DNA from: Dipteris shenzhenensis
Taxonomy: Eukaryota
DNA length: 64,000 nucleotides
Direction: 5' to 3' (one strand)
Assembly (NCBI GenBank): GCA_047967505.1
Contig: CM106538.1
This document shows, one piece after another, positions 7,900-43,053 of this stretch. Numbering within the stretch: the first letter of the stretch is position 1; each line of letters opens with the position of its first letter. The notes under the pieces were generated by a model, which saw only the letters and a list, made by a program, of their open reading frames with translations, did not search any database and was not told the DNA's origin. Position numbers and translations under genes: made by a program.

Positions 7900-8995
7900 G
7901 AATGCTGATGAAGCCTCCACTCCAAGCTACTCCTTGTGAGAGCAATGCAAGCATGAGCCATCCACTTGTGTCACGCAAGCGGCTTCCTGTGCAGATCTGT
8001 GAGTTGACGTACGAAGGCCATTTCGAGTTGCACGGTAGTGTTGTCAACGTATTTGCGGATGTGGACTATGCTCAGACGATCTTGCCGTGCTTTATCAAGA
8101 CAATGCAATGGTGGTTGTTGCAATCAAGAGGCACCTACATTACAGTCTTAACTATCTCAGTGGGTTGGTTCGTCCCAACCCTCACAATGCGCGTGCTCCT
8201 GGAATTGTTAAGAAGCACACTTTACAAGGAGAACAACATCGCTATTAACACTATGTGGAAATAACACATCGACAATTTGCAAGCGCCTGATGAAATAAGC
8301 CAAGGCCAGCCAATGTGGCAACAAATAAAGACTCAGCAGATGATTGCGAAGCAACAGACATGTTTGTGCACAGCATATACAGAGCCCAGTAAGTGATAGA
8401 CTACAAAGACGAGTTGCCCCATTTGAAGGATTCTCCCCACTCAGCCTTTTTTACGATAGGGATTGTGAGGAACTTGGGTTCCCCACACTATTTTATGGTG
8501 ATTGCAGAATGTACAGTACATTTGTTGATCGAACATACCAAGACATTGTCAAGTGGGAGCTACGAAGCGAAGATCGCCAATTTGCTCTCTCTTTTGAGAA
8601 CTTGTTTTTTAAGATGATGAAGGTCCTTGTCCAGCAAGTTCTTTCAGCTTGTTGGGTACATATGTGGAAAGAGCAACTACAACAAGGGTTTGATTTGTGA
8701 GCAGAATTGGTCTTTCATGATACCAACATTGAGCAGGTCCTAAAATTTCAAATAGGTTACAAAGACTTTGTCTAGTTGCGCACATCTATAGACTACAAAC
8801 ACAAGCTAAAATGCAACATTTTTGCAATGCTATGGCAACTTGGGTCCCCCACCTTCTTTGTTATATTTTTTGTTGTGGTAGAATGGAGGTGGGCATCGTT
8901 GGTTTCATGTTCGAGACAGCTCTAGCAAATAAGCCACAAAATACAACCACCAACAACACGATGCAAGAGCTCCAAGAGATCATTAGGTCTGATCC
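7900..8995 (+). pseudogene. Helitron-like Rep/helicase protein, N-terminal part
   Basis: LHGSVVNVFADV; EELGFPTLFYG...VKWELRSEDRQFA...NLFFK; AMLWQLGSPTFFVIF; IIRSDP. These are Helitron_like_N/DUF6570-type motifs, broken by stops and frameshifts. Confidence 0.8.
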
Positions 8996-11939
8996 GCAGA
9001 CATGGAGAACCCCTTCGCCAACATGTCTGGGGGAAGGGAAGGTCAGCAACAACCAGCTCTTGAAATGCACACAGGGACTGAAACCAACTTTGTGGACCCG
9101 GGGATCACATCTTTTGCAAGGAACTAGGGAACGCCTAGATGATGAAGATCCATGGATGAGGGACTTTCGGGGACAAGACCCTAACCGGGAGGATGCAAGA
9201 GGCTCCCAAGGAGGGGCATATTATGAACTCCCAACATTCTTGGTGCCACCAACCTTCGCCAACTATGACCACAAGCTCCACCCTATCAGCCAATGCAAGG
9301 AACCTCCATGCCAATGCCCCATGACCCACCCCCTCTAGGAGTCCAACCATTTCCACTCACATCTGTTGCTCCAATGAATGTAGGCCTTGGTGCATCCACC
9401 ACAATGCCGGTACTAGCAACTTAATGGATTCCACCACCATCCAGGCTTAAGGCCAGCCCTATGTCCCGTTATGCCCACAGTGGCGCCGCCTCCAAATGGT
9501 GAGGATCATGAATTCCTCAAGGAGCCAACCCATAGCCATCTCCAAGTTGATGACCAAATTCCTTGGGGAAGGAGACCCGATCTCCCACGTGGGGCGATTT
9601 GAGAAAAAATGTGAAGCCTTTGGAGCTCTCAGAGATCTAGAAATGGCTAATGCGTTTGGTCTCAGTCTAGATGGCAAAGTAAGCCAATGGTATAGGGCTC
9701 TCACCTCGAAAGAAAAAGTCAATTGGGAGACAGAGAAATTGTAGTGTTCACCCCTAGTGGACATAAATGGAGCCCGATTAATCAGTTATATGAGGTGAAG
9801 CAGAATGACAAGGGATCCCTTCAGGATGACATATCTAGAATCAAGCACATCAATTCCCATTGCAAACCATACGAGCGGATGAGCGACAAATGATTGTTGC
9901 CCCACTTCCTCATCAGGTAAGCAAACCCAAAGCTGCATGACCACCTGATGGTTATGAATCCTACCTCCTTCAAACTATGTAGCAGGTGGCTATCTGTATA
10001 AGTGATAATATGATGGACAAGGCTAGCTCGGATAAAACCTTGACCCCATCAGAAGTATCACCATCGGTCAGGTCTTCCAGTGTGGAGACGACCAAGAAGG
10101 AGATCAACGAGCCCAAGGACTTAGATATGAGTGAGCTAGCCTCAAATTTTTTAAATCAACTTGGCCAATAGTGGAGGTCCAGTACCTCCAAGGAGGCGCC
10201 AAGCAACCCCCACTTGTTTCCACGGAGAGATAATGTCTGGTGCGGGATCTGTAATGGTGGCAACCATCCCTCCAATGAGTGTCCCCGCTACCTTAGGGCA
10301 AGGCCAACCCTGTACTGTGCACACTATCATAGATGGAGGAACCACGATACCTCCCAATGCCGATTTGCAAGGTCCCTTCCCCAACCTATGAATCAAGCGA
10401 GACCCCCATTAGCCCTAATGGCTCCGCCTAATCCTATAAATGCATAAGGTGCCCCTTTGGCTAGTTCAGGCCAGTACAGAGCACAACAAGCTCCGTTACC
10501 ATCGCCCATACTGGGTCCTCAACCTCCCCTACCCCGTATAGCTCATGTCAATCAAGTATTGGTAGAGGAAGTGCCCAATGATAGGGAGAAGATGGATCCA
10601 GACCATGGACCCCTCGACTACTACCCCTACAAGGAAGGAAGTGGCACCCTAAGTCACTACCTCCTGCAAGAGGATCAGCAAGTCCCCATGTTCTAGACTA
10701 CTCCCTTAAATGCAAGGGCCAGAGACATAAATTCTATTGCTTGAAGGCCCCTAATCCAATGCTATACTTGCTAGGGCCCACACAGGGCAAGTGAGTGTCC
10801 CTACAAAGGTACTTTGAACCCTCCGATGTCATGCTTCAAGTGTTAGGGACCACATTTCTTAAAGGAATGCCCCTATAGGGATCTTACCCTAGCTGCTTCT
10901 CCCACGACAGGCCCTACACCCTTGCATGTGGGATACGAAATTGAGCATTTGTTCAAAGACTATCCCTTGAGAAGACCAGCAACCCCAGTCACCTCACCTA
11001 AGAGCACCAGCCTTAACTTTCTAAGTATCAAACAAGGCCAGGTGGCTGCGGTACCCTTAAAGGTCATCACAAGGATGCAAGCCAAAGCCATGGGTAGGGA
11101 AATGAGAAGGAAGGATAGAGGGCCCCTACTACAAGGCTCTGAAGTTTCTCAACATCAGCAAACTTGGTCCAAGAAAGCCATACGAGTAGGTGATGGGCCC
11201 AACAAGCTGCTCATTCAAGATGGTTCTGATGAGGAGACAGCCACCCTCTCCACCTCCTCTACCTCAGGACGTGCTTCCATCTAGGGTACCCAAAAGTACC
11301 TCCAAGCTCGGATGTACACAAGCTAGTGCAGGTGCAAGTCCTTGCACCCCCACCCAAATATAAGGAAACCTATCCGGACCCAGTCCTAGAGAAACAATAT
11401 GTAGTAGAGGCTCAAAACTTGGTACAGCAGTGCTAGGAAAAGTTTGAGCATAGACTCAAGGCAAGCAGAGGGTCAGATACCATCCACCCAGCCCACCTGA
11501 CTAACCATCGAGGAGAAAAGGTGCTCAAGGTGATGGAAAGGGTAGAAGAAGAGGAACGTTTCAGCTTTGATAAGTCAAAGGCTCCAGATTTGATGCAGTG
11601 AATGTTCCAAGAGGACCCAGTATTGCAAAATCTATAGGAAGAAGGAGACCTTTATGGTCTTGAGGACTAGCTATCAGTGGGAAGCAAGTCCTCACAAGAA
11701 CCCCACGATAGTGCTGGGTTTGCTGCCTTCCTCTCAACCAAGGTAAAAATGCCGATCGCCTCTCTGTTGAGAGGGAATCCCATCCTTTGGCGAGACCTAT
11801 CCAACTAGATGAATGGACAATTCCTTCCCCTAGGCCCTACTAGCCCTAAGGCCAACCAACTGCCAGAGGAGGGGCAAAGCTTACCTAAGGTTCCCATGAT
11901 CAATAAGCTAGGCCAATACTTCGAAGGTGATGACACAAA

Positions 11940-12290
11940 CGTGGCTATCCCCATAACCTATCAGCACCAAAAGGTTGATGCCATCTTGGATGGGGGAGTG
12001 GGAGTGAGTGTCTGTACCAAGGAATGCTAGGTAAAGTGGGGAAAACCTGTGCTCGAGCAAACCCATCTAGTGGTGAAGTTGGCTGATGGCGAAACTATAG
12101 AATCCTTGGGATTCCTCACTCATAATAACATCAAAGTATTTGGATTCACGTACCCCATCAGGTTCATAGTCATGGACTTCACCCAACAGCCAGGATATGA
12201 AGCCATCCTAGGCAGACCCTTCTTACAAATGTCTGAGCTCTCACACATGACTGGCGTACTGATAACATCTATCTATGGCACAAGGAACAA
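11940..12290 (+). pseudogene. Canonical aspartic protease (DGG-type) of element B
   Basis: VAIPITYQHQKVDAILDGGVGVSV...VKLADGETIESLG...YEAILGRPFL. Confidence 0.85.
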
Positions 12291-15200
12291 ATCATGTGAG
12301 TGGACTTGCACACATACAAGGCCCTGTCAGGACACCTATTCATCGCGGAATCTGACACAACCATTCGAACAACATCCCTGAAGTTGTTCCATCACTGTGA
12401 GAGGGAAGAGAATGAGAAAGAGTCTAATGGATTTTGGTATGCACCTCTTCCCAAGCTGGAATTTTCTCAGAATTGGATGCACATCCTGGCCAACATTGAT
12501 GTTCCAGAGAGAATAGGGTTCCAAATTACAACCCTCGAGCTCGAGAAAATGACCCTAGAGGCTCCCCTTAGAATGTTTAACATGGTCAAACCCCACGAGG
12601 TGAGCAAAGGGATAGTAAGGGTCAAATTAGACCTCCACTGGCTAGCATACGTTGGTGCCACTACTGCCCACCATGAGTTCTCTTCCAATTGGGGAGCCAA
12701 GGTGAGCAAGGTAACCTCCCTGGTTGGCTCTGTAAGTGCCATGAAAGACTCCCTTCAGAACTCTCGTTATCCAAAAGCTCAACTAAGGCCAAGAGGACCA
12801 CAGTTTCTAAAGAAATAGAAGAGGAAGGTGGATAAAAGGACAATCTATGACAGGTACCAACCCACTACAAGGCCTACATGATCGAGGATCACAAGATCTT
12901 ATACCAAAATGCTAAGAGATCTCGGGAAGATAGGTGCTCCCAAGGATATGATGGCCCACCAGCCGCGGTCAAGGAGACCCCCAATCTATATTCATCGCCG
13001 ATGACCTCTCCCCCAATGAGGAGAATGCTCTCATAGCTCTCCTATGAGAATACAAGGATTGTATGGCTTGGAAATACACCGATATGAAAGGGGTGCCCGT
13101 CACTGAAGTTGCATAGCACATGATACCCATGATGGATGATGCTAGGCCAATACGTCAACATCCCTACCCTATGAATCCCAAATACGCACTCATAGTGAGG
13201 GAGGAAATCCAAAAACTCATAGATGTGGGATTCACCTATGAGATCGAGCATACCGACTGGGTGTCACCCATCTTGATAGTCTTGAAGAAGAACGGAAAGA
13301 TTCGAGTATAGATAGAGTTGAAAAAAGTTAATGCTGCCACTAGGTGCGACCACTACCCCTTGCCATTCACGGAACATGTCCTGGAAAGGGTATCTAGAAA
13401 GGAAGCCTATAGCTTCCTAGATAGATTCTTGGATACAATCAAGTGTCCATCACTCTACAGGATCAACATAAAATAGCCTTTGCAACTGAATGGGGTGTGT
13501 ATGCAGCTAGAGTAATGATATTTGGGTTAACCAATGCACCTGCCACCTTCCAAAACGAATGATGATCACTGTATTAAAGTACTTAAGGGACTTTGTGGAA
13601 GTCTTCTTGGATGACATATGTGTGAGCTTGATGTGGGATGATCACCTGCAATACCTAAGGCTGTCCTGGAAAAGTGTTGGTTGTACCATATATCCCTAAA
13701 CTCCCTTAAGTGCCAATTTTGGGTTAAGCATAGCATAATTCTTGGCCACATAGTGTCCCGGAATGGTATCTCCATGGACCACAACAAAATCAAACTCATC
13801 TTGGAACTACCACCCCCCACAACACCAAGGGAGTACAGCGATTGACTGGCTACATGGGCTCCTATAGGAGGTTCATCTTATTCTACGTGAACATAGCCCA
13901 TCCATTATATAAATTGTTAGAACTTAGTATTATTTGATTGGACCAAGGAATGCCAAAAATCCTTCGAAAACTACACCAGTGTTGAGAGCACTAGACTAGA
14001 ATCTAATATTCCATGTTCATATAGATGCCTCCAATTTCGCTATCGGGTGTGTGTTAGCCCAACCAAGGGAGCATAACCTAAACTACCCGGTGTACTTTGC
14101 GAGTCAACACAACTAAATGAGGCCGAGGTCAACTACACAACAAAAAAGAGGGAGGGTCTGGTCTATGCAGTCAAGAAGTTCAGGCATTATTGGTTGGCCA
14201 ACAAGTTCGTCTTCTTTGTGGACCACCAAGTCATGCTATACTTGGTCAACAAGCCATGCATGATGGGATGCATCACTAGGTGGATGCCAATCCTCTTGGA
14301 GTTTGACTTCATAGTTGCTATATGTAAAGGGAAGACCCATGTCCTAGCTGACCACCTCTTGAGAATACCAAATGGCAAAGCCCCTACGAGAGTCAAAGAT
14401 GACCTCCCCGATGCTTCCCTCTTCCTCATTGACATCATACCTAAATGGGCCACCGAGATCGATCACTACTTGGCCAATGGCTTACTCCTAGGCCAAGCTC
14501 TCAAGAAGGATAGAGCCCGCAAACTCGTTAAGGACTTAGCACCATATCAGCTAGTTGTAGGCCAACTATACTGCATGGGCAAGGACAACATCATGTGTAG
14601 ATGTATGTACGAGCACAAATACATCGAGGTGCTTGAAAAAGCCCACTTTGGAATTGTGGGAGGGCATTTTTTCACTGATGTTACAGCACGTAAGGTGTTC
14701 CAGGCTGGTCTTTGGTGGCCAACTCTCTTTAGAAATGCAGCTGAATTTATCAAGTGGTGCGACCCCTACCAGTGTGTGCAAATCCCACATAAGGTGGACA
14801 TGATGCCCTTAGTCGAAATATTAACTGATCAGCTCTTTGAGAAATGGGGCATAGATTTTATTGGACCTATAAGGCCAGCGGCTAAAGGAATTGGGGCTAG
14901 ATACATTATCTTGGCCACACAGATTACATCACCAAGTGGGTAGAGGGGAGAGCCACCATGAAGGTAGATGCTAGATCCACTCCTAAATTCTTATATGAGC
15001 AAGTTATCATGCGGTTCAGATGTCCTTTAGAGCTAGTCAGGGATCGAGGAACTCATTTCCTCAATGAAGCTATAGCAATCCTGACTAGCGAATTCACGAT
15101 TATACATAGGAAGTCAACGCGATACTATCCTAGGGTGAATGGCCTAGCTGAGAGCTCGAATAAAACTTGTTGTAAGATCATAACTTGCACAGTAGAGGAT

Positions 15201-15879
15201 AGTCGTACTGACTGGGAGCATAAGCTCATCGCAACCCTATGGGCCTACAAAAAATCCTACAAGGTGGCCACGAACTGCACCCCCTTCAACCTAGCCTTTG
15301 GAGTGGATGTGGTGATGCCAATGGAAATTTGTAGTGCCTAGCCTTCGACTTATTGTCAAAGAAAGTCTCACTGAAAATGCCTTCGCAAAATGCTTTATTG
15401 ACCTTGAAAAGCTAGATGAGACAAGGTTGTATGCAACCATGTGGAGAGGGCCTAATGCAAAAAGTGGTTCAACTGCAACCTCAAGAACAAAGGCCTTGTA
15501 GAGGGTGGTCTTGCACTCCTCTACAGCATCTGCAATACCGAGTGCAAGCTCAAGTACCAAGACATGGGTCCCTACCCTGTTGTAGAGATCACTCCACAAG
15601 GAGCGTGCCAAATAGGCACCCTTGATGGAGTAGAAATGGAAGGCTACCTTAACAGGAGCAAATTGAAGAGATATTACAGACCACTCACCCTACCTACCCT
15701 TCAAGCCATCCATAGAGAAAAATAACTCAAGGCTGAGGTAGCCCAGATGAAACGCCAGGTGATCAAAGAAGCCAGGGCACATAACGCCAAGCTTAGATAG
15801 CGTAAGCAAATGGCATTGCTTAAGGCAAGGCTTGAACACCCAGGATTGATGGATGAACTAAAGGTAGAACCAACTAGGT

Positions 15880-16200
15880 TGCATGTTCACTTATAGAGTC
15901 CGAGCTTGCGCATTCGAGCACTCGTGGATGCGGGAGCGAGCTACAACTTCATCTCCCACAAGGTATGGGAAAAGCTACAAGTACCCCTAAACCTCACCGT
16001 CACTTCGATACACTCTATCAATGGCCAACTTTTAAGTACCTTGGGTTTTCTGGACTTGAGTCTAATGGTTGTTCACTAGGAAATAGAAATCCGCTTTTAT
16101 GTTCTCCCCATAGAAACAACTGACGAACATATCATATTGGGAAGGACCTGGTGTTATGCCGTGAACCATCAAATCAACTAGAGGGCCAGAATAGCTTCCC
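15880..16200 (+). pseudogene. Second retropepsin-like protease domain, in frame after integrase (element B)
   Basis: From 15906: LRIRALVDAGASYNFISHKVWEKL...IRFYVL...EHIILGRTWCYAVNHQIN*R. Same frame as the integrase end (LNRSKLKRYY, 15660); only point stop codons intervene. Confidence 0.8.
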
Positions 16201-17274
16201 TCATGAATGGTGGTAGAGCTGTGGTAATTCCTCTTTGTGAACCATGCTCTGCTCCTTCTGTTGCACCCTCACCAACCCAAATCAAGGAAGTTCTATGGGA
16301 GAATGAATCTAAAGCTCCACAACCCGCCAAACACCGACCCTCTAAAGAAAGTCCGACCCCGAAGAGAGCATAGGACCAACTGCGGCGGCAACTAGGTGCA
16401 ATTGCCCATTACTCTGCCACTACTATCCCCCACTCAGGAAAGCCATGAATAGCAAGTACAAGACGCTATTCTCTACACTCAATGCTACTTCAACAGCAAC
16501 CGACAACCAAAAAAGATCCAAGTAGGCCATGGATCCCTAATCACTCTGAGGACGTCTCTGTTGAAGGCAACCCCAGAACATGATGCCATTCTCACCTCGA
16601 CTCCCAAGCCCTAATCCACCCCCTTAACTGCCGCAGCATCCGCCCAAGCGTTGGGTTGTGACCAAGATCTTGGAAGACCAAGATAGTTACAATGGCAAGC
16701 AAGTCATCTGGGTACCAAAGTTCAAGTCCCAAACTACTCCAAGGGTTCCGAAGGTAGAAACACAAGAACCTGTGTCAACCTTGGATGTAGTACCACAAGA
16801 ACCTACCATCAGACCAGCTGCAACAACCAAGCCCTAGAGTCTCAAACTGCCCTTGTACCAAGAATTGTACAACTCAACACGAGAATCACCTAGGACAACA
16901 CAAGAACCGACCCCTATAATGAGGGGAGTTACATAAGAACCTTCCTCCAAATCCGAAGGAGAACCATCAAAGATTGTTTTGATCATACCATCACCGATGG
17001 CGCCGCCGCTCGACTCGCAAGAGCAACTGTCTACGTTGAGGGCAATCACACAAGAACTCACTTATCTTGCGACCAAGGGTCATCTCGCAAGGAATCATCA
17101 CCATGCTAGTGTACCTCTGGCATCCAGGGTGAGACACAAGCTAGACACATGCTCTACATGGCTGTTAAGACATGATGCGGCAACATGACATTCATCAACA
17201 CTGCATTCCACATGATCATCGAGTCCAAGTCTAGGTGAGTTTGTATGGTAGGCATATTACCCCAATGCACCCGC

Positions 17275-17900
17275 AGCCCACAAGTCACTTCCTTGCACAT
17301 ACACCCACATGTATGCATGGTCAGCACTAGGTGAGTAGGGCTAGTACATCCCTTTTGCATTTTTTGTATTCTTGCACACTAACCTCATAGTCCTCCCCAC
17401 GCTTCACTTGTACACCTCACATACACAACCACTAACCCTTTCCCCTCTCTTTCTCTCCTTTCCACCTTTCCCCTTCTTCATCACCTTGCTTTACTTTCCT
17501 CAGATAGCTATCATATCAACCATTGCCATCCCAATATCATGCCGACCGTTGCCATCCCAATATCCCACCGACCGTCGCCATCTCAATTTTCTGTAGCCCA
17601 CAAATCACTTCCTTGCACATACACCCACATGTATGCATAGTCAGCACTAGGTGAGTAGGGCTAGTATGTCCCTTTTGCATTTTTTCTATTCTTGCACACT
17701 AACCTCATAGTCCTCCCCACACCTCACCTATACACCTCACATACACAACCATGAACCCTTTCCCCTCTCTTTCTCTCCTTCCCACCTTTCCCCTTCTTCA
17801 TCACCTTGCTTTACTTCCCTCAGATAGCTATCATGCCGACTGTCACCATCCCAATATCCCATCGACCATCGCCATCCCAGTATCCCACTGACCGTCACCA
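17275..17900. repeat. 320-bp tandem duplication merging into CCATCCC..CCGACCGTC short-repeat array
   Basis: AGCCCACAA.TCACTTCCTTGCAC... at 17275 and 17595. The array of ccatccca.tatcc...gaccgtc units extends to ~18050. Confidence 0.9.
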
Positions 17901-18065
17901 TCCCAATATCTTGTCGGTCATCACCTTTTCACTATCCCTCTAATCATCACCATCCCACTATCCCATTGACTGTCATCATCCTAATATCTTGCCGATCATT
18001 GCCATCCCAGTATCCTACTGACCGTCGCCTTAGGCCATTCCCCCGACCATGGGGATAGCAAATTC

Positions 18066-18073
18066 TATATAAA
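18066..18073 (+). promoter_or_regulatory. TATA box (TATATAAA) upstream of the extra ORF
   Basis: CTATATAAAGG ~120 bp upstream of ATG 18191, directly after the repeat array. Confidence 0.55.
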
Positions 18074-18190
18074 GGAGTCCTATCCCCCTCGGGTCATCGC
18101 CATAGCATTTACCCCTAAACTCTGTCAAAATTCTGTTAGAAATTTCTCAGCCCCCAGCCCTCTTCCACATAGCAATCTAGCACTCAGTAC

Positions 18191-21100
18191 ATGTCCTCAA
18201 GCTCCTCCTCTTTCACCGATTCCCTCATCACTCAATTGCCCTCCTTTTTCCCAATGGATCCAGAGAAGGAATTTTTTTAGTTTGAGCTAGAGCTTGGCCT
18301 CCACCCCCAACCCCCTATCCCGCAAGCCACTAGTCCCTCTGAGTCACAAAGCATGCCCTTGGCCACGATCCCCATATGCCCTTCGACTTCCTTGCTGAAG
18401 ATTTACAAGCAGAGAAAGAGATCTCTATGCAACAGGTCACCCAAGAGGTACTGACAACAATAGGCATGCCCCCCTCAAGGACATCAAGAAAGTGCACCCC
18501 GGCCCCCACACAAGGGGAGTACAAAGTTGTGCACTCACAAACACACTAGCCGCTTGGAGAGGCATGGCTCCAACAACTCGATGCATGTGCTAGCAACTCC
18601 CATTATGCATACAAGGGTCACGACTACACCCTCCACTACCACACCGCAATGGCGTATCAAGAACTAAAGGAGCCGATAGTTTAGCATGCACTCGTAGTGA
18701 CAAGATTGGGATCCGTGGCAAATTGCCTTCCTTGTCACTTGGATATGAGGCTCTTGGGAGAGTTCCTCCAGGCCTATAACTCCAACACAAATGTGGGCAC
18801 TCTTGGAGACACTCCCCACTTCTACCACCTCAACATGGACATGGTGCAAGCTGCCTTAGGCCTGCCGATCATCGGCAACAAGTACTTAGTGATGAAGAAG
18901 AAGATGCCCAAGGCCCTCAGCACAATCTACCAGTACGACCACAAAAAGAGCAAGGGGTGCATCCATTTCTTAGAGATTATCATGCCAAAAATGGAAAAGC
19001 CAGCATGGGCCCTCGAATGGTTGACACAAGTTAATCACAAGAATACCATTAGTCAGTCGTGCCAAACATCTTGTTGAGGCTGGCAAAACCACAAGTCGTG
19101 AACTGGGCTGATTACTTCTATAATTAGATGCGGGAGGACCTCAAAACACATGGAGAAGTCATCAGCAACCCAATGATCTACATGCCAATCCTCTATCATA
19201 TGCAGTAGCAGCATCCACCTATTGGCTATGGGTTGGCCAACAAGTTAGCCACACAAGATCGGTACCAATAGATCAGAAGAAGCCAAGCGAGCAAAAATAG
19301 AGCCCAATGCCACTCTGGCCAGTCGTCCCATGCAACTTGACCCAAGTCAGTTGCTCGCATAGTATGAGGATCACCAGCTCTGCAGGCATTCCTATGTAGT
19401 TAGTTACACCTCGAGCAATCAGATCCTCAAGACAAAGGCAAAAGTGTACACAGAAGGAGCCCATCATGGTGGATGTCCTCCCAGGTGACGAGACAGTCAT
19501 CATTGGCCTCTAACTAGGAGCTCAAGCTATCCCATCAACCCCCGATGCACCCCAGGTCTTGGCCTCAGCCACGTCCCATTCTCAGGAGACCACCTCCTTC
19601 ATCACCGGCTCCTCTTCTTCTCCATGGGCAAGCCTTACAAAGACCATACAGTTTTGCAGCGTGCCTGATTATTGGGCACCAAGTGGTTACAACCACATGA
19701 TAGTAGAGCAGCTCTCCCGTGCTGACCAAATGGAGAAGAATTTATTTGAGGAAATGGCACAACTGCCATAATTGGCACAATCAATTCTGCAAAGGTGGCA
19801 AGAATAGGCCTTGCAACTCTCTGTGACTCTCCTCCAGGCATACCTCACTGCGCGTGATAGCCACACCCTAATGGTCGCCGCTCAAGCCACAAGGCAACTG
19901 ACCCTAGATCAAGCGGAGAAGTGCTGCACAAAAGATGAGGAGCTAGAGATGTCACTCACAAAAGCTGAGGAGCTAGAGTTGTCAATCACGAAGCTCAAGG
20001 AGGCTACGAATGCTAAATCTAGACATTGCAAGATCTCTTGGCATAGGAATGAGCACTGACCGTGTCCATGCAGAAATAGAACAAGTGGCTACGTATCCCT
20101 GACCACCCAAAAGACTCAGGGTTGAAGACCATCAGTAGTAGGAATTTCAAATGTACAAGGAGGTCTCTGCACAATTAGCCACCTACACACTCACCCCACG
20201 CACTATCCTCCAAACACTCCAAATGCACTTCAATGCACTCTGCACACAAAATCTCATTTTCCACCTCGACCTCACTGCCCCACTCCCTCCTAATGCCCTC
20301 CAAACCATCCTCCACCGTAATCTCGACCATTGCCACCCCATTCTCGCCATGTCTTATTTCTCCTTATACCTTCAACCATCTAGCCTCTCTCTCCTTCTCC
20401 CCTCTGACCTCCAAACTCTCACTGCCCATCCAATTTTGCCTAATTTCCAAGCATGGTGCTACATCATCCACAAAGTCCACAAATTATCCTATGGACGATG
20501 ATGTGATGCAATTAGCAAAGCCCAAGGAGCTCAACCCATGGGCCTGCACTCCAGATAGTCTACAAGCTTGCATTAATTGGATGCAAACCTACGATCGAGC
20601 CTCCACAATACAAATGCAAGGGCATCTTGTGGCTTACCAATCCACCGCCTACCATCCCCTCAGCATAATAATCCTCTATAGCCAAGTGCTACAAGCTCTC
20701 CAAGACTCATTGAGTCCTTGGTGAGCAATTTTGAAACAATCCATGTAGCATATCTCGAGGAAGTTGTTGAGGAAAAAGGCCAAGAAGCCATTATAGTATT
20801 TAATTCTTTCGGCCCCCTGCTGAGCTTCCACAACCACCTCCCCTAGATCCTGCCTAGCCCACCCAACAAGCCACCTAACCCCTTCCTCACACAAATATGC
20901 CTAAATACTCTTCCAATGCCTCTAACACCACCACCACACAGCATAGGTCCCCCTTGTCCATCTCATTTACCACTCCGGTTGACCTTCTAGAAGAGGCCCT
21001 CAATACGCTACTTAAGTAAGCCAATTTTGTATCCACCGATACAGTGCCCACAAAGATAGCAAAGAAGGAGCCAATGCCGATTGAAGATGATGAGGTTCCT

Positions 21101-30059: not shown

Positions 30060-33000
30060 GCTACTCAGTATGGCACTACCTTACTCCCATTATACAATTT
30101 GGGTAATACATTCCCTTGCAAATCTTCAAGTCTAACGATCCCATTGGACAAAACTTCAGTTAACCCCGGTAGGAACCATTCCATCCCAATTTGAAATTTG
30201 TTTTAAGAGGTCCCAACGTATCATTTTATAGTAATACAAGCATACCCTTCTTCAAATTCTTAGGCATAACATGCCTATCATGCCATGACTTTCTTTTGCA
30301 CTATATCACCTACTGTGACCAGGCTACAATGGATCCGTAACTCATCCAAGTGGCTTAGTTGATGCAATTGCCCCTTGATTACTTCTAACTCATCCAAGTG
30401 ATGCTTGGTAGCAATACCAAGATTGGGAATAATAAATTCTAAGGGAACGACTACTTCCACCCATACCAAAAGGAGTAAGATTTGTAGTGACCTTATAAGC
30501 AATTCTATATGCCCATAAAGCATAATTTGAAGTTTGCTATCCCATTCATTCTTGGATTATTGCACTATTTTTGTGAGGATAAGCTTAAGTGTTTTGTTTG
30601 TGGACTCAGCTTCACCATTTCCATGAGGATGATAAGTAGTGGAGACTGTATGCATGATTTTGAATTCGGTCTTGAGCAACTGCACCATGTCATCAAGGAA
30701 ATTTGTACCTTGATCACTAACAAGCTACAAAGGGCATCCATATCTACACATCATATTTTCAAAAATGAACTTAGTAGTGTTCTAAGACGAGCATCTTAGA
30801 GTGCTTTGGCTTCATCCCACTTAGTAGCATAGTCAATAGCTACAATTATGTATTTATTTTATGAGGTTTGAAAGGGCCAACAAAATCCAAACCCCATCTT
30901 CAAAAAGCCTCTCAAGGATGAGTAGGTTGCAATGGCATACATTGATTTGGCAATAATCATCCAATGCATTGATAGGCATCATAGTGCATAAACTTAGTTT
31001 AAGCATCCTTGAACAAGGTTTCCCACCTATAATACTTTTAAGGGAAGTTAACTCCCCTTGGAAATGTCCTCCTGAAGGACCCAAGTGCACTTCCTACAAA
31101 AGAATTGCTCACTCGTGTGGCATAATCCATCTTCAAGAACTCCATCTACACACTAGCAATAGAGGTGTCCACTAATCAAAATGTATTTCCAAGCCTTCAA
31201 GGTCAGTTGTTTACGCCTGTCATGAGTCATTGTATCAAGAAATGTACCATTAGACAAATGATCCATCAACTTGGCATATTCATGCTCACAATAATCAACT
31301 GCAAAGAGTTCAGCATCCAAAAGTTCACTAGTGACTCCTTGATTAACCTTGGGTGTAGGAAGTCTAGATAAATAGTTATCTCCCACATGGATTTTCCCAA
31401 GTTTGTGAGTCAGAATCTTGAAGAAGAAGCATCCAATGCACAAGGCACCCTTTAATAATAACAGTTCTATTGATCATATAAAGTAATGCTAGATGATCCA
31501 CATAAAACAAAAAGGGTTGTCGAGTAAATAATGCCTTAGTTTTTGCACACTGAATATCATTTCCAAAGCTTCTCGCTTAGTGGTGCTATAGTTGGACTCA
31601 ATAGGCATCAACAACTCATTAGCATAATATTTGGGATAATCTAGCCGACCATTTGGCTAAGCCAAAATAATGCCTAAGGCATACTTAGAAGGCATCTACA
31701 TGGACATGGAAAATAACATCCCAGGAGTAGCCATTTCTCGACTCATAAGATCATGGAAAACCATAGTTAGCTTAGTAGTCCATTCAAGCTTGGCATCTTT
31801 CTTTGTAAACTCATTCAATGGAGCTACAATCTTGGCAAAATCTTTGATAAAGCAGCAATAGAAGCTGATAAACCCCACAAAAGAATGCAATTGAGTTAGA
31901 TTTTGAGGCTCAAGCATTTGTTGTATGACTTGAGTCTTACCTGGCTTAGTTTGTATTACCATCTTGAGAAATGACATGATCGAGCAATATCCCCACTTGG
32001 ACATAGAATACACATTTAGCCAGGTTGAGTGAACTACCCACTTATTGTGCATCTCAAAAAGACCTTTTCTAGATAACCAAGATGATCTGTCTAAAGTAAA
32101 CACAAAAATCATCTAAGTGAATGGCAATGAATTTAGTGAGATAATCTCAGAAAGTTTCTACCATAAACTTCTGGAAGGTTGATGGGGCATTTCTTATTCC
32201 AAAGAGCATTACTCGGGTTGCATAAGCACCCCATTCTATGATAAAGGTAGTTTTAGACTAATCTTCTGGAGCCATAGTGATTTGATTATAACCACAGTGT
32301 TAGACTGATCTTCTAGAGCCACAATGATTTGATTATAGCCATTGTAACCATCCATAAATGAGTACATCTCATGTCCTACAACTTGGTCCAAGATTCCATC
32401 AATGAAGGGTATTGGAAACGGATCAGGGACTGTCTCTCCATTCAAATTCTGATAGTCCATGTAGAAGTTTACCATTTTTCTTAGGCACAACTACAATAGG
32501 AAATAACCAATCACTACTAGCATAGATAAAACCAACATGCAAAAGTTGATCCAACTTGGCTTTTACCTATTTAGCATAGTTGGGATTCATCCTATACCTC
32601 TGTTGTCGAATCGGTTTGGCATCTAGCACCAAAGGTATCTTATGTTGACACAACTCAAGAGGAAAGATCAGTGTAATTCCAGAAAAAAGCATCCTTATAC
32701 CCAATAAATAAGCCCTTTGTAACGCTTAGTTTTTTAAAAGAAAGATTGGCACTTACCTCTACCATTGCCAGCTTATCTTCTGTTTTGAGATTTAGTTATT
32801 GTGTTGGCTTTGGTACTAACTGCTCCGTACTAAGTCTTGGAGTAGTCTTTGGCTCTTCAGCTAGCTCTCATTCGCCTTCAATATCTTAATTGAAGCTACT
32901 TGAAAGGAGATCTTTTTGCTTAGCAATCTACTCAACTTTCAGGTTTTGTTTGATATCTGTAGCTACTTCAAAAATATCAATCTCACCCACCACAAGTAGG

Positions 33001-35786: not shown

Positions 35787-37058
35787 TCCCCATCCGAAGC
35801 TCCATCATAGATATAATAGGTCCCTGAGAAGAGGGAATATTATCACATTGAATACAAAATTGTGTGTCCTTATCCACAAAAGAGAGTGTATGCTCTTTCC
35901 ATCCAATCTGAATATCGTGGGTTTTAAACCACTCTATTTCGATTAACAAGTCCACATGTTCCAAGTGCATGACATAGCACGTAAGAGCAGCTGAATCCCA
36001 GCTAGAAGCTGCACCTCATAGGTGTGATCACTAGGTATCATGGACAGCCCCATCCTCTGCACAAGTTTGTAATTAACAAAATTGTGAGAGCTGCCCGAGT
36101 CAAAGAGAATGTGAATTCTTTGGTCCCTTACTTCTCCATAAACTTGAAAAAGGTCATGGGGGCCAAATAACGAATTATTAAAAGTGCAATTACAAGAAAG
36201 TGGGCAGGAAATGACATTTACAGAAATACCTGTCATCAAAACTTGATTAGCTTCCTTAGCTTTGGTACCTTGTCCCACATGGAGCTTCGCTCCCGACACT
36301 TGCATCTTGTTCTTGCACTTAGGACAATCATTTTGAGTGTGGCCCCACTCCTCGCATATGAAGCAACGTCCTTCTTTCTTTAACTTCAATGTGCATTGGA
36401 AATGGGCACGACCATTCTTCGTTTGAGTCGAGTTCTTCTTGGAGGCTAGTATCCCCTCGGCTAGGGTCTTGCCTTTGGAATTCCCTCATCCATGGATCTT
36501 CATCATCCATGTGTTTCCACTGGGAAGGTCTTGCATAGACAGAGGGTCCTGGATCAGTGAAGGTGGTTTCTATCTCGGTCTGTGGTTTCGAAGGTGGATG
36601 GTGCTGACCTTCCCTCCCTCTAGACATGCTGACGAAGGGGTTCTCCATGTCTGCCAACTCTATTCGGCCTAAGCGTCCAACATGTTGGAGAATGTTCCTC
36701 TAAGCCTGGATGCAACCGAAGGTGCAGGCGAGTTAGGAGAAGCTATACTTGTGAAGGGGGCCTTAGATGCCCTTGGACCAGAGGGGTCTTGCATCACTTC
36801 GTCCAAGCTCTCTGTTTCATCGGAGCTAGATAGAGTTTTTGGTCGGGGACCTACTGACAACTGGAGGCTAGGGATCGATCTTTCGGATCCCCAGCTAGAG
36901 CAGAAGGTGGGTTGAGCATAGCTCGAAGCACTCTCTTTTGGTATGGGCTCCCTTGGTAGAATTCTTCCAGACCTCAAGTGCATGTGGGATGCCTCTAGTT
37001 GAGCACATTCAGGCTGAATTGAGGTTTTGGAACTTTTTTAATTCTTTGGCTACCCCAA
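35787..37058 (-). mobile_element. LTR-less gag-protease fragment inserted into RT of element D
   Basis: MHLRSGRILPREP...DDEDPWMREF, CCHC knuckle CFICEEWGHTQNDC and protease ILFDSGSSHNFV. Flanked by AGGTAT at 35781-35786 and 37059-37064. Confidence 0.8.
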
Positions 37059-39939
37059 AGGTATCACGACGGTTTCGACAAAATTAGAGTATATGTCCAT
37101 CTAGAAAAGGTCAATGCTGCTATGTGTAAAGATCACTATCCATTGCCATTCATGGAGCATCTGAGGTTCCCAGTGCAAAGAGCATGATCTGGTGAGAAAT
37201 TTTGCTCTTTGGATCACCTCCACAGAGAGTCACAAGAAAGGAAGTTATAGCTTCTTGGATGGTTTCCCTCGGTACAACCAGTTGTCCATAGCAGTGATAG
37301 ATTAGCATCAAATAGCACTCGTGGGAGTCTATGCTTTAAGAGTGATGTTCATAGAGGTATTCTTGGATGATCTATGCATACATTCCACATGGCATGAATA
37401 CCTCAAATACCTTAGACTAGTTTTTGAGAGGTGTCACCTCTATAGGGATTTTCCTCAATCCTCTTAAGTGCCAATTTTGGGTTAAACATGGGGTAATATT
37501 AGGCCATCTTGTACCCAAAAATGAGATTTCCACAGATTAAAGAAGATCCAACTCATCTTAGAGCTACCACCCCCTACAAATGGAAAGGGTATGTATGGCA
37601 AACAGGCTATTATCAAAGATTTGTCTATAGCTATGCCAATATTGCTTGCCCTTTATACAAGCTCTTGATCATATTCAACTAGATGGAGGCCTTCCAAACC
37701 TCCTATAAAACTCTTAAAGTCATCCTAGCTTGCACCCCTATCTTGTGAGCACCAAACTAGAATCTAGTATTCCATGTGCATATCGATGCTTCCAAGATTG
37801 CAATAGGGTGTGTGTTGGCATATCAAGGAGAGTATAACCTGGACTATCCTATATACTTTGTAAGACACCAAATAAATGATGTAGAAATGAATTATACAAC
37901 TATGGAGAGGGAAGGCCTTGCAATGGTCTATGCCATAGAAGTTCTACCACTACTTGCTAGACCAATTGCGTGTTCTTCATGGACCACCAGGGGCTTCTTT
38001 GTCTAGTAAACAAGCCTTACATGATCGGACGCATCAAGCGGTGGATGGTTATCCTACTAGAATTTGATTTCAAATTGGTAGCTTGCAAGGGATGCACACA
38101 TTTTATGGTAGACCATATGTCCCAAATTTCAAATGCCTACAAAACTGGTGTGGACAATGATCTCCCAGATGCCCCAATATTCCTTGTAGACCTAATACCG
38201 GAATGGGCTCAAAAGGTTGATCATTTTTTGACCAATGGGTTTTTATAGGGCAGGGCCCTTAACAAAGATAGGGCCATAAAGCTTATCAAGGATGCAACAC
38301 CTTATCAGTTAATAGCCAGCCAATTATGCCAAATGGGTAAGGATGGCATAATGTGCCGCTATGTTCATGAGGACGAATTGTTTGAAGTGTTGGATGAAGC
38401 CCATTCAGGCATTGTAGGAGGACACTTCACAAGGTATCACAAGTGGACCACATGTATGGGATTCCCAATGGAGAGCTTACAATTAGGGCTAACAAGATCT
38501 TCTAGATGCCTTGCTATTGCTTGTAGACCTAATCCCGAAATGGGCTCAGGAGGTTGGTCATTTTTTGGCCAATGGGTTTCCACAGGATAGGGCCCTTAAC
38601 AAAGATAAGGGCCAAAAATTGATCAAGGACATAGCACCATATCAATTAATAGCCAGCCAATTATACTGGATGGGCTCCGAATGGGTAAGGATGGCATAAT
38701 ACACTGTTGCATCCATGAGGAAAAATTTGTTAAGGTATTAGAAGAAGCACACTCAAGCATTGTAGGAGGACACTTCAGAGGAGAGCTCACAGCCTGTAAG
38801 GTGCTACAAGTCAAATTATGGTGGCTCATTCTCTTTATAGGCACAATCAAATTCACCAAGCAATATGACCCCTACCAAAGAGCTTCATACCTCACAAGAA
38901 AGACTATATGCCTCTTATAGGAGTTCTTACAGACCAACCCTTTGAAAAATGTGGCATCGATTTCATAGGACCTATCAATCCAGCAAAACGAAAGGAACAT
39001 AACCCCAATACATTATCCTAGCATCACAAAGTGGGCATAGCCCAAGACAACTAGGAAGGCTGACGCTCAAGTGATGCCTAGATTCCTTAATGAGAATGTC
39101 ATAACATGCTTTAGCCTCCCATTGGATATTGTGAGAGACCAAGGGACTCAATTCATCAATGAGGCGATTCACATCCTAATAAGTGATTTCCTAATAATCC
39201 ATAGAATATACACTCTGTACTATCCCAAAGCAAACGGCCAAGCCAAAAGCTCTAATAAAACTTTATGCTTCACAATGACCTACATGATAGAGGCTAGCCA
39301 GAGTGGCTAGGGACACAAACTCACCATTGCATTATGGACATACCATACTGCATACAAAGTTGCAACCAATTGCACACCTTTAGCCTCAGGTTTGGGATAG
39401 AAGTAGTGATGCCCCTGGAGTTCATAGTGTTAAGCCTAAGGGTGGAGCTTGAGATAGAATATCTAAAGAGACCATCGTTGAGAGGCTGATTGAGCTCAAG
39501 AAGCTTGATGAAACAAGGCTTAGGGTAGCATACGGCACTAAAGAATAAGGACCTTGGTGAAGGTGACGTTGTGCTATTATACAGTGTAAGGAACACTAAG
39601 TGAAAGCTTATATATCATGGAATGGGTTTGTATCAGGTTCTGGAGATCACACTACAAGGGTCATGCTACTTTGCGACCCTCGATGGGGTCGAAATGGATA
39701 GTTTCATTAATGAGAACAAGCTTAAACACTACTATGTCCCTCTGACCCTCCAAACCTTATAGGCCATCCATCAAGAAAAAGAACTCAAAAAAGAGGTTTC
39801 CCACATGAAGAGGTAGGCAATAGAGGAGGCCTTGGCCCACTAAGTGAAAATGGAGCAACTAGGGCTAATAACGATTTGTAACACGATAGTAGAAGGGCTA
39901 AGACCCTCTGGAAGACCTAACCATTTCCCCTGCTAGGTT

Positions 39940-40260
39940 TCTAGTTGATTTTCAAGTCTACAAGGAAATGATCCACTCCGTCGAAGCTTTTATGGACCCC
40001 AAGGTGAGCCATAACTTGATCTCCCACAAAGTATACAACGACCAATTAATATCAAAGGTAACTAGTGAACCCACTCTTGTACTTGTATGAGTTGTAAATG
40101 GTCAAGGCACACTCATGATTTTATACATGGAGGTGCAAGTCTCAGTGAATAACCATAGTGTGGCAACCCGCTTCTATGTGATGCTTGCAGGCACTATTGA
40201 CAAATAGGTAATACTTGGCAGAACATGGTGATGGGCCTCAATTGTTGGATTGACTAGCGA
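39940..40260 (+). pseudogene. Second retropepsin-like domain after integrase (element D)
   Basis: IHSVEAFMDPKVSHNLISHKVY...TRFYVM...VILGRTW, homologous to 15880-16200. Confidence 0.7.
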
Positions 40261-43053
40261 GGATGAAAAGCAATGTTGACAAGCAACAGTCGCACATATG
40301 TGACTCCACTTTGTTTGGGAGTCATGGATTCAAATATCTCCCCAACATATAAGTCCACACATCATCCACCCAGATCTGCAAGAAAACCAGAAACCCACCA
40401 AGCAAGGTTGAGCCTTCGTCATCCACCACCCATGCCATAGCCATTACTCCAAATGGGAAAGCTAGTACTAAACAATGCTTCCATCCTTTAAGGATGTCAC
40501 CACCACACCCACTAAGTCTCCCAGAGGAAAGACAAAGCCATCACCGGCCATTATGTCCACAACATCAATGGTCAAAGCCTTTGCCTCTTCGAGTCAGTAG
40601 CACAGCCGACACAAGGAAGATCATTGGTGGGCTCCAAAGGGTCTTCACCAATCCAACACTATCAAAAACCGAGACAGAGGGCGTCAACATGCACCTTTGC
40701 TCCTGTCCTTACGTCGACCCAAGGTGGATTCCTAAACGATTACTAAAACGTAAGGGCTACTAAAAGCTAATGCTTATATCTGGGTACCCAAGACCCACCA
40801 TAGGCTACTCTAACTTCCATCAACCATCCTAAGGCACAAGAATCTAGCCCCCCACAACATTATGAATGGAGACTAGAAGACACAATGCAATCTCTAGCTT
40901 CATCAAGTGGTAGGGCAACAATAGACCCACAAGAACCTGCCTCCAAGAAGGAGGTAGCCCCACACGAACCTATTGCTCACCCATTGAAAGAAAAGATCAC
41001 TCTAATAAGGTCACAGATGACATCACTATGGATTCAACCTATTGCTCACCCATTGAAATAAAATATCACTCTAGCAAGGTCACAAATGACATCACTATGC
41101 CCTCAAATCCTTATGTTACAAGGGAGAACGTCGTCAACAACTGTGGTAATCCCATAGGAAACTTCTCCTAAAAAGGGATAGAGACACAAGAACGTGCTAC
41201 ATCACAAGGCAAGTCGGAAGCGAAAGCAATTGGCGAGCTCCAATGGTTTCCCAAAGGAGAATCCTTAAGTCTCGGCTCCATTGTGGATTCCACTATGACA
41301 TCAAGCTTGGTAGTACCATAAGAACCTTCTTTTAAAAAGGGAGTAGTGCCACCCAACCTACATTTTGTTATGTAATGCGCCGCCATTCCCTTCACATGTA
41401 TCCTATTTTGTCTATGGCATTCTTTAGCATTGATATCCAACACCTAACCCTTCATCCTATTCTCCTAAATTTTCATAGTTGATGTAGGTGTATTATCAAA
41501 TTCTCCCTTTTTCTCACGGAATCCAAAATCCTTGAACTCTCTAAGCCCCATTACCTCCCAACATGGGCTTGCACTCCACATTTTGTGGTCGAATGTTTGC
41601 AAGAACACAATAGGGAGGAAGCGCAAAGAATCTATCAATATCTTTTGGCCAACGGGGTTACCCAATACCACCCGACTGGCATTCTTGTCTTATATGATAA
41701 AATTCTGGAAGCCATAGAGCGCATGATTGAGGAAGGTTTTAGCCATTTTGAAACCAAGCATGTTGCCTATCCTAGACTAATAGCGAGGAAGAAGCTGATA
41801 TGGCTATAGCCATTTTCAACTCCATGGCCCATCCCAATACTTCTCACTTGCCAAGCCCCTCCACAAATATTAACCACCCGCCTTCTTCTCGTCTTAGTAC
41901 TTACCTAAATTTCCCCAACCCCACCACCACCTCCTCCCCATTTAAGCAATCATCTGCCTCACAGTCCTCCACAAACACACACATTGGGTCATCAGAGATG
42001 CCTCCAAGACACTCACGACCTACCAAACAAATTTACTCTAGAACAGGTCCACACCACCATTTTACGATGGCTAGCCTTTGTGCCTACGAAGCCTCCTCCA
42101 TATGACTAACCCTCCACAAAGACGGACCACTTTCCAAGTGAAGGGCATGACTAGCTCAAAGAGATTCCTCCTGACGACCCCAAGTGCTACTGCATTTTGC
42201 ATAACTGTAGGCCCTTCAAGGACCTCACCAAGCCTGTGGTAGGGCAAACTACAAAGTTTTGATCTCATGGTGGTCGACCTTATGAAAGTATGAGCCCTAA
42301 CACATTCATCGCAAAGACATTCAAGAAGGGGAAGGCATCTAATAAACCAACGACCTGAGGAGGGTATGCGGATCCAAATCCCCAAGCTGTGCCCCCTCAC
42401 GGATGCAAATGGTGGTCTATAACCCGCTTAGAGGATCCCATGTTTGAAGAAACCTGAGTATTAGAGAACGTCTTGTAATGTGTGCCAAGCCTACCAGATC
42501 CATCCTACTTATATGCCCCTACACCGCAGATGGAAATGGAGTATATTCTGGCAAATATAGGATAGTGACCCTAATGTAATACACAATTTTTTGGCCTTTA
42601 ACTTCCCAAAAATCACCACGATATATGGTCTCACCTTTCAGATGTAGCAGTATGTTGGCATGTATGCTGAAGTCCCAAATCCACAAGTCATGGCCTCCAT
42701 CCACTTTTTTTTCCCCCAAAAAATGTGGGCTTATATTATAAAGTCAAAAAGAGCCAAATTTTTACATCAAAAGTTCTCTACCCTTGACCAAAAGTATTGG
42801 GGAAAAGTAATATAAGGGTCCAAAACAAACCAAACTGAAGTAAAAATGCTAAGTGTTGAACAAAACATATCAAACTCTCTCCATCCACATTTTTCAACTA
42901 TTGATCATTTTATTTAGGGACGTTCTCAAACAATTTTCGACGATGGAAGAGCTGCAACTAAATATCCACCATGAGATAGTTATTGATCTGGATGAGGGCC
43001 CCTCCTACAAGCACGTCATTTGCATGTATCTCCGTGTGCACAATCTCCATGCT

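Follow-up and report, generated by a model that had tools for sequence, protein, structure and literature searches.

A second retropepsin-fold domain behind the integrase in two decayed copies of a Ty3/gypsy retrotransposon lineage from the fern Dipteris shenzhenensis

The stretch of Dipteris shenzhenensis DNA analysed here, 64,000 nucleotides of contig CM106538.1 (GenBank assembly GCA_047967505.1; hereafter the window), carries on its plus strand at ~9.4-16.8 kb a decayed Ty3/gypsy retrotransposon, element A, in which a gag with zinc knuckles, an upstream protease (PR1), remains of a reverse transcriptase (RT), an RNase H, an H2C2 module, an integrase core and a GPY-type tail follow one another, and in which a further protease-like domain (PR2) stands behind the integrase. 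A relative, element B, lies on the plus strand at ~35.7-40.8 kb and is 5'-truncated. We consider it likely that the two are old and dead copies of one Ty3/gypsy lineage whose Pol has inherited an extension composed of a helix, PR2 and a tail, and for which we propose a dimeric-protease mechanism. The features are listed below; names beginning with P or L denote database proteins and metagenome loci, respectively, and element C is a Gypsy element on the minus strand.

9451..11284, plus strand: gag-like region of element A with CCHC zinc knuckles, decayed (translation; the zinc-knuckle end of eIF3g is the sole Pfam match, E 2.9e-7)
11944..12228, plus strand: PR1 of element A, the canonical upstream protease, LDGGVG ... 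AILGRPF (PR2-derived profile E 2.4e-8, 22.3 bits; Pfam Asp_protease_2 E 0.0048)
12967..13920, plus strand: RT remains of element A, split across several frames (collinear protein matches to elements B and C; FLDD by eye)
14092..14304, plus strand: RNase H of element A (Pfam RT_RNaseH E 9.6e-11, 42.2 bits)
14626..14781, plus strand: zinc-binding (H2C2) part of the element A integrase (Pfam Integrase_H2C2 E 2.3e-5, 24.8 bits, slightly below the cut-off of 25.5)
14901..15341, plus strand: integrase core of element A, C-terminal part (52% identity over 139 amino acids to element B; aligns to the rve-bearing P0005 and P0016)
15456..15677, plus strand: C-terminal GPY/F-type tail of the element A integrase, ..GPYPVVEI..GTLDGVEMEGYLNRSKLKRYY (AlphaFold beta strands, residues 19-72)
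15678..15875, plus strand: charged helical linker of element A, PLTxxxLxxxH followed by a K/E/R/A-rich helix, three in-frame stops (AlphaFold helices 79-88, 92-113 and 117-127)
15876..16238, plus strand: PR2 of element A, a second retropepsin-fold domain, DAGA ... ILGRTW, two in-frame stops (profile, Pfam, AlphaFold, Foldseek)
16646..16723, plus strand: tail motif of element A, KRWVVTKILEDQDSYNGKQVIWVPKF, in a frame different from that of PR2 (tblastn with the tails of L004, E 9e-7, P0062, E 0.002, L001 and P0142)
20307..20777, plus strand: block common to elements A and B, downstream of the tail, 41372-41794 in B (tblastn E 1.5e-14, protein level)
39538..39858, plus strand: integrase tail and linker of element B (59% identity over 106 amino acids to A; tail-plus-linker profile E 3.9e-19)
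39908..40237, plus strand: PR2 of element B, DPKV ... ILGRTW, with stops and one frame off its integrase tail (31% identity over 110 amino acids to A)
40713..40795, plus strand: tail motif of element B, RWIPKRLLK..GY / YIWVPK, broken by a frameshift (translated comparison with the tails of relatives)

Translation of 15456-16373 on the plus strand gives a single frame of 305 codons, free of frameshifts, that leads from the integrase tail ..MGPYPVVEITPQGACQIGTLDGVEMEGYLNRSKLKRYY (ending at 15677) through a charged helical stretch into ALVDAGASYNFIS ... IILGRTW ... HQIN*R, which confirms the in-frame succession that a first-pass annotation of the window had claimed. The charged stretch reads RPLTLPTLQAIHREK*LKAEVAQMKRQVIKEARAHNAKLR*RKQMALLKARLEH.. 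and the protease-like domain ..IRALVDAGASYNFISHKVW ... DEHIILGRTWCYAVNHQIN*R.., asterisks being stops. There are five internal stops, at codons 90 (TAA), 115, 147, 208 and 242 (TAG), with a further stop at codon 306, and because of the five this copy is a pseudogene and dead; neither window copy is functional today. The order gag, protease, RT, RNase H, integrase is found on one strand in element A, its gag showing CCHC-like strings such as CYTCxGPHRASECP (read by eye). Its RT yields no Pfam RVT match at E<=0.01 in the plus frames of 9400-19000 and was recognised through its similarity to other copies and through motifs read by eye. None of five minus-strand open reading frames (ORFs) across the region has a Pfam match. 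The upstream DGG protease that had also been claimed is present as PR1 (LDGGVG), and the Pol of element A has two protease domains, PR1 upstream of the RT and PR2 behind the integrase. A single protease is the rule in Ty3/gypsy Pol.

On residues 152-231 of the element A read-through Pfam returns Asp_protease_2 at E 4.5e-5 (24.5 bits against a cut-off of 24.3, hence marginal), gag-asp_proteas at E 2.3e-5 (25.3 bits, under its cut-off of 28.2), RVP_2 at E 0.011 and RVP at E 0.018. Two profiles, one for the tail plus linker and one for PR2, were made from database relatives alone with the window sequences excluded; the former matches element A at 15588-15827 (E 1.2e-24) and the latter at 15876-16238 (E 1.5e-37, 116.6 bits). 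In an AlphaFold2 model of the read-through (72-row alignment; mean predicted local distance difference test score, pLDDT, of 80.3) a beta-rich integrase tail is followed by helices within residues 79-127 and then by PR2, whose blocks reach a pLDDT of 88-97. Foldseek against the PDB gives 171 matches at E<=0.001, and among the matches listed there are retropepsin folds only, the best of them being the RVP domains of Ddi1/DDI2 (E down to 6e-7, template-modelling (TM) score on the target 0.79-0.81), with Rickettsia APRc, XMRV protease and HIV-1 protease (TM 0.76) further on; model and matches together describe a six-stranded retropepsin barrel. An ESM Atlas look-up yields generic retropepsins only, at scores of 0.80-0.82, under the 0.9 level. 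The reading of PR2 as a second retropepsin depended on retropepsin matches being found, and such matches are given by Pfam, the relatives-only profile and the fold comparison.

By sequence profile the best solved relative of PR2 is ASPRV1 (E 1.9e-9), followed by DDI2 (8.7e-4). ASPRV1 (SASPase) and Ddi1/DDI2 are its closest solved relatives and share the homodimer geometry of the model described below; they are, however, host proteins, whereas PR2 is part of a retrotransposon Pol and neighbours integrase domains. Ddi1 carries UBL and UBA domains, and UBL/UBA Pfam families are absent at E<=0.01 from P0004, P0005, P0006, P0013, P0026, P0038 and P0058. A host Ddi1 gene as the source of PR2 was rejected, the sequence profile favouring ASPRV1 together with retrotransposon-type Pfam families.

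The same arrangement is found in element B. Residues 9-114 of the element A read-through (tail and linker) match 39538-39855 by tblastn with 59% identity, residues 132-235 (PR2) match 39908-40237, and the PR2 profile finds element B at 39974-40237 (E 8.4e-18). Elements A and B are collinear from 13158/35680 to 16160/40237, their pol DNA being ~67% identical; as they share the order tail, linker, PR2 in diverged form, the junction is older than the split between them. Element C (minus strand; PR1 at 33418-33095, then RT, RNase H and an integrase ending near 30077) and another minus-strand Gypsy integrase tail at 1300-1085, near the start of the window, serve as internal negatives, neither having a linker or PR2 behind its integrase by tblastn and the profiles.

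Outside the window, the 306-residue read-through was compared by phmmer with 1.84 billion cluster representatives, which yielded 137 matches at E<=1e-3, 27 at <=1e-10 and 3 at <=1e-30. By the two relatives-only profiles 28 of the 137 carry tail/linker and PR2 in this order, a count obtained from 35 of 146 proteins by removing the window row, P0140-P0145 (later cluster members plus the chimeric P0141) and P0066. The last, from Amoeboaphelidium, was dropped as most likely a gag-protease protein in which a weak chance helix had passed for the linker. P0008 and P0016, from the fern Adiantum, hold integrase core, tail and linker and end just within PR2. A Pfam family check at E<=0.01 covered ten relatives: P0016 shows Integrase_H2C2 and rve, then tail, linker and DTGA, P0005 shows rve and Asp_protease_2 in one protein, and the PR2 of P0038 passes the curated cut-offs of both gag-asp_proteas (37.8 bits) and Asp_protease_2 (37.4 bits). 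A profile scan of metagenome contigs gave five loci, four of them of the PR2 family; the fifth, L005, was rejected as an ordinary protease. L001 runs uninterrupted for 509 codons from integrase tail through linker, PR2 (DSGA, ILGRSW) and tail to a stop, L002 encodes RNase H and integrase ahead of a 323-codon open frame across PR2, and L004 has a 436-codon open frame from the linker to the Pol stop; in these natural loci the frame is uninterrupted across the junction. In intact relatives Pol extends ~330-430 residues past the integrase tail (helix, PR2 and basic tail), whereas the canonical Ty3/gypsy (Metaviridae) Pol, which element A resembles in its order of gag with CCHC, PR1, RT remains, RNase H, H2C2, integrase and GPY-type tail, ends at the GPY/F module.

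These junctions bear on whether PR2 might have come into frame by chance, as part of a different element or as an independent ORF further downstream. Nested insertions are common, element B itself holding one of ~1.3 kb (35794-37075), and an in-frame relation has a chance of 1 in 3; against this, the same junction with a conserved linker recurs in B, in the 28 of 137 matches and in the four loci, three of which are open across it, and neither RT nor any other Pfam family was found downstream of PR2 in the plus frames up to 19000, nor an RT among the frames listed for the 2 kb past the Pol stop of L004. The conserved open junctions refute an accidental juxtaposition, to which we give almost no credence. 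Judged from these sequences, the PR2 extension is an inherited one that stayed open and conserved while the lineage diversified, not a nested insertion, and the earlier proposal of a second retropepsin fused behind the integrase is upheld by the B copy, by P0008 and P0016 and by the wider set of relatives.

We compared PR2 with PR1. By BLASTP the PR2 of P0038 and the PR1 of element A are 30% identical over 88 amino acids (E 7e-5). A tree of 69 protease domains was built without the rows that covered fewer than 90 profile positions and without two rows duplicating window sequences; the domain is a short one, and the tree leaves many forks unresolved. One branch splits 19 junction-proven PR2 rows from 8 rows in PR1 context (gag or RT) with a Shimodaira-Hasegawa-like approximate likelihood ratio test (SH-aLRT) value of 83, at which the split is not starred and is neither shown nor rejected. 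The PR1 of A groups with the PR1 of C (SH-aLRT 93) and not with the PR2 of A. As far as such sequences allow, the tree agrees with PR2 having arisen once and long ago from a retrotransposon-type protease, and a recent duplication of PR1 into PR2 inside element A does not fit it.

PR2 might alternatively be the working protease of the lineage, with the DGG-bearing PR1 decaying or non-catalytic, in which case the protease would have been relocated and not doubled. The PR1 of A is indeed weak in retropepsin profiles (Pfam E 0.0048; 22.3 bits with the PR2 profile) and reads DGG; yet weak scores are expected in a dead copy, DGG occurs in other plant-type proteases too (P0104 and P0111 read DGGS, and P0104 has an upstream zinc knuckle and downstream RT-type sequence by eye), and in A the canonical position still holds a recognisable PR1. 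We regard a relocation as improbable.

What PR2 does depends on its active site. The alignment of relatives shows an almost invariant Asp and a conserved D-x-G-A..N, and the second motif, ILGRTW in A and B, is kept as [ILVMFC]LG..W in 20 of the 21 sequences that cover it. The Ser/Thr of the retropepsin D[ST]G builds the "fireman's grip". Among 40 junction-bearing sequences covering the site (P0066 excluded, rows partly redundant) D[ST]G is present in 24, D-x-G with L, F, P or A in 8 and other readings in 8. Neither window copy has the catalytic D-[ST]-G-A, PR2 reading DAG(A) in A and DPK(V) in B, and their subgroup reads DPR in P0003 and P0140, DLG in P0004 and P0009, DPG in P0033 and DPS in P0010. 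P0145 has DLGA where P0142 and P0144 have DSGA, all three in one 90% cluster, and therefore some of the variants, at least, reflect a single mutation acquired by a dead copy. For the window's subgroup these readings suggest either that every sampled copy has decayed at the Ser/Thr codon or that the branch has lost the Ser/Thr.

A model of the intact relative P0142 shows the linker as a single helix (residues 88-130) and PR2 at 147-266 with a pLDDT of 89-98; residues 274-476 are disordered except where the WLQAQ motif forms a short helix, and the end is predicted as helix with modest confidence. Two copies of its residues 140-272 were modelled as a PR2 homodimer with a score of 0.71, the best of 3 controls scoring 0.00; the homodimer mark is reached by 21 of 30 solved one-chain pairs and 0 of 23 solved single chains (17 of 29 and 0 of 30 for eukaryotes). 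At least 91% of contacts recur between runs, the partner pLDDT is at least 79, and the tightest contacts join D164, S165 and G166 to their own counterparts, which is the retropepsin dimer geometry; solved retropepsin dimers exist and the model may simply reproduce them, so that it shows likeness, not binding. Such a homodimer would suit a dimerisation module and a protease equally well.

Past PR2, by ~100-150 residues, relatives share the motif (Q/K)RW[IV]PK..LL.AQG.Y.G...[IVF]W[VI]PK (seen in P0006, P0038, P0044, P0053, P0062, P0125, P0142, L001 and L004), with further WVPK/WRPK repeats in the basic disordered tail; the tail motif is without a Pfam family and, from its sequence, could be a cleavage or binding site. 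P0142, L001 and L004 have a common C-terminal end, ..I[RK][QE]RA....[CI]KLFG..SL. P0029, an unrelated multi-protease protein, bears KKIWVPKG.

On our reading the Pol of this lineage continues past the GPY/F tail with a charged helix of ~45 residues, PR2 and a basic disordered tail of ~200 residues, and we propose that the multimeric integrase and/or the helix, acting as spacer or coiled coil, would pair two PR2 monomers. Paired PR2 would form a symmetric retropepsin dimer with its two D-S/T-G loops face to face, independently of PR1. In members with DSG or DTG this would give Pol, at its far end, a second active aspartic protease, the most plausible job of which would be the late trimming of the Pol/integrase C-terminal extension during particle maturation; in the window's subgroup, whose sampled copies have no catalytic Ser/Thr, PR2 would perhaps only dimerise or bind.

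In its full form, a fern Ty3/gypsy lineage with two proteases, in which PR2 is an active dimeric retropepsin on a long helix that takes the place of a chromodomain and has a job distinct from the processing of Gag-Pol by PR1, this proposal is one we hold tentatively and at less than even odds. PR2 would then either mature the integrase C-terminal extension or cut a host protein at the integration site. Several observations weigh against the main reading, that of an inherited PR2 extension with a dimeric-protease mechanism. D[ST]G is lacking in 16 of the 40 family sequences and is found in 0 of 8 in the window's subgroup, which speaks against catalysis at least there. PR1 and PR2 are seen within one element in element A only, B being 5'-truncated, and the named relatives are limited to one fern species, Adiantum nelumboides. 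No direct repeats that could be a long terminal repeat (LTR) pair flank A or B by self-blastn or a word-7 flank search; because no such pair was found the limits of both elements are undefined, and LTRs with a target-site duplication were seen for neither, the copies being old. Finally, Nei-Gojobori comparisons among L001, L002 and L004 give for PR2 a proportion of nonsynonymous differences (pN) of 0.46-0.51 against 0.64-0.78 for synonymous ones (pS), with synonymous sites saturated. Selection on PR2 would seem more strongly argued from open frames and profile conservation than from dN/dS: frames of 323-509 codons are open and fold-defining positions are kept across relatives 25-54% identical to the window.

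The missing Ser/Thr would be explained if PR2 were a pseudo-protease, either lineage-wide or in the window's subgroup, that has kept fold and dimer interface for integrase dimerisation or tethering. Its position is exactly that of a chromodomain, the modelled dimer interface requires the fold alone, and the RVP domains of Ddi1 are the best structural matches. On the other hand D[ST]GA is present in the majority given above, including all four metagenome loci (three with long open frames), the DLGA of P0145 beside its DSGA cluster mates shows that variants can be single decay mutations, and an invariant Asp is hard to account for without catalysis. We think this unlikely overall, although it is the main rival, and for the window's subgroup a non-catalytic dimerising or tethering role appears the likelier.

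No relative of the family turned up when viral contigs and prokaryote genome contigs were scanned with a profile, and word-indexed protein searches with the element A read-through (among longer and among similar-length proteins) gave no match; the same kind of search with residues 300-520 of P0016 against longer proteins found P0141 only, a chimeric gene model. The named sources of the family are hypothetical proteins of A. nelumboides (P0008, P0016, P0058 and P0141). P0141 and P0058 are Adiantum gene models in which host-like sequence is fused to integrase tail-linker-PR2 fragments, P0141 also bearing PF13589 and PF17942. P0005, a member of the plant element family, lies on a 1653-bp contig assigned to an Enterobacter cloacae complex isolate, where it carries the label DDE-type integrase, and is probably contaminating DNA. 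In L004 an open 161-codon acidic ORF (1421-1906) begins ~110 bp past the Pol stop; it matches neither a Pfam family nor anything in the window and is a candidate additional 3' ORF of the subfamily. L002 has two tandem Integrase_H2C2 stretches (1-1476; Pfam E 1.5e-22) ahead of the integrase core, and a similar first copy is seen by eye in L001; the integrase N-terminus of the PR2 family seems prone to duplication.

Within the window, the 3' region of A contains at 17275-17907 (to ~18060) a tandem pair of repeats of ~313-320 bp; the two are 90% identical, and their translations are proline-rich (..PSQYPTDRRH..). The block shared by A and B (20307-20777/41372-41794) begins 0.4 kb past the tail motif in B and 3.5 kb past it in A, and from this spacing A has ~3.1 kb of extra DNA that includes these repeats; the block is a candidate 3' ORF or LTR start. 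Pfam shows no family above noise in the shared block, in the post-Pol ORF of L004 or in the tail of L001. The insertion of ~1.3 kb mentioned above, which breaks element B at 35794-37075, contains minus-strand pieces resembling 8954-9197 as well as part of a protease on the minus strand (36128-35848), and is therefore a nested piece of a different element. The integrase of B also contains a tandem duplication (38154-38429 and 38492-38777, 78% identical), in the part of the integrase that is doubled in L002, and element C lies directly upstream of the truncated B.

Chromodomains of chromoviruses direct integration. Chromoviruses are alike in having an extra folded module fused behind the integrase tail, but theirs is a chromodomain and that of the PR2 family a retropepsin fold behind a long helix; the Chromo family is absent at E<=0.01 from the three plus frames of 9400-19000 and from the ten relatives. 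The Tat lineage of plant Gypsy elements has an added archaeal-type RNase H (aRH) whose position varies between branches, according to the portions of the reference survey PMC6317226 available to us, and is alike in holding a second copy of an enzymatic Pol domain; Tat doubles the RNase H where element A doubles the protease. In the literature searched, chromodomains behind the integrase and the extra Tat RNase H are the closest precedents. The Ty3/gypsy domain order quoted in the available portions of PMC6317226 has one protease, and full-text searches, within the text they returned, gave no description of a second protease behind the integrase nor any sign that the architecture was already catalogued, so the succession of integrase, linker and PR2 is apparently not previously described.

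In the same portions of that survey of plant LTR elements (REXdb) the word "fern" is absent, and elements with repeated domains were removed. Annotation pipelines and reference sets treat such elements as artefacts and drop them, so that families of this kind in fern genomes, which are very large, would be misclassified or lost; host gene models of Adiantum are already contaminated by fragments of the family, as in P0141 and P0058. The textbook picture of LTR retrotransposons and retroviruses has a single protease, which must dimerise between two polyproteins. If the reading of a Pol with two proteases is true, it would be an uncatalogued, lineage-defining Pol architecture, and the PR2 lineage would offer a natural system for the limits of protease dosage and timing and show what besides chromodomains can join the C-terminus of an integrase.

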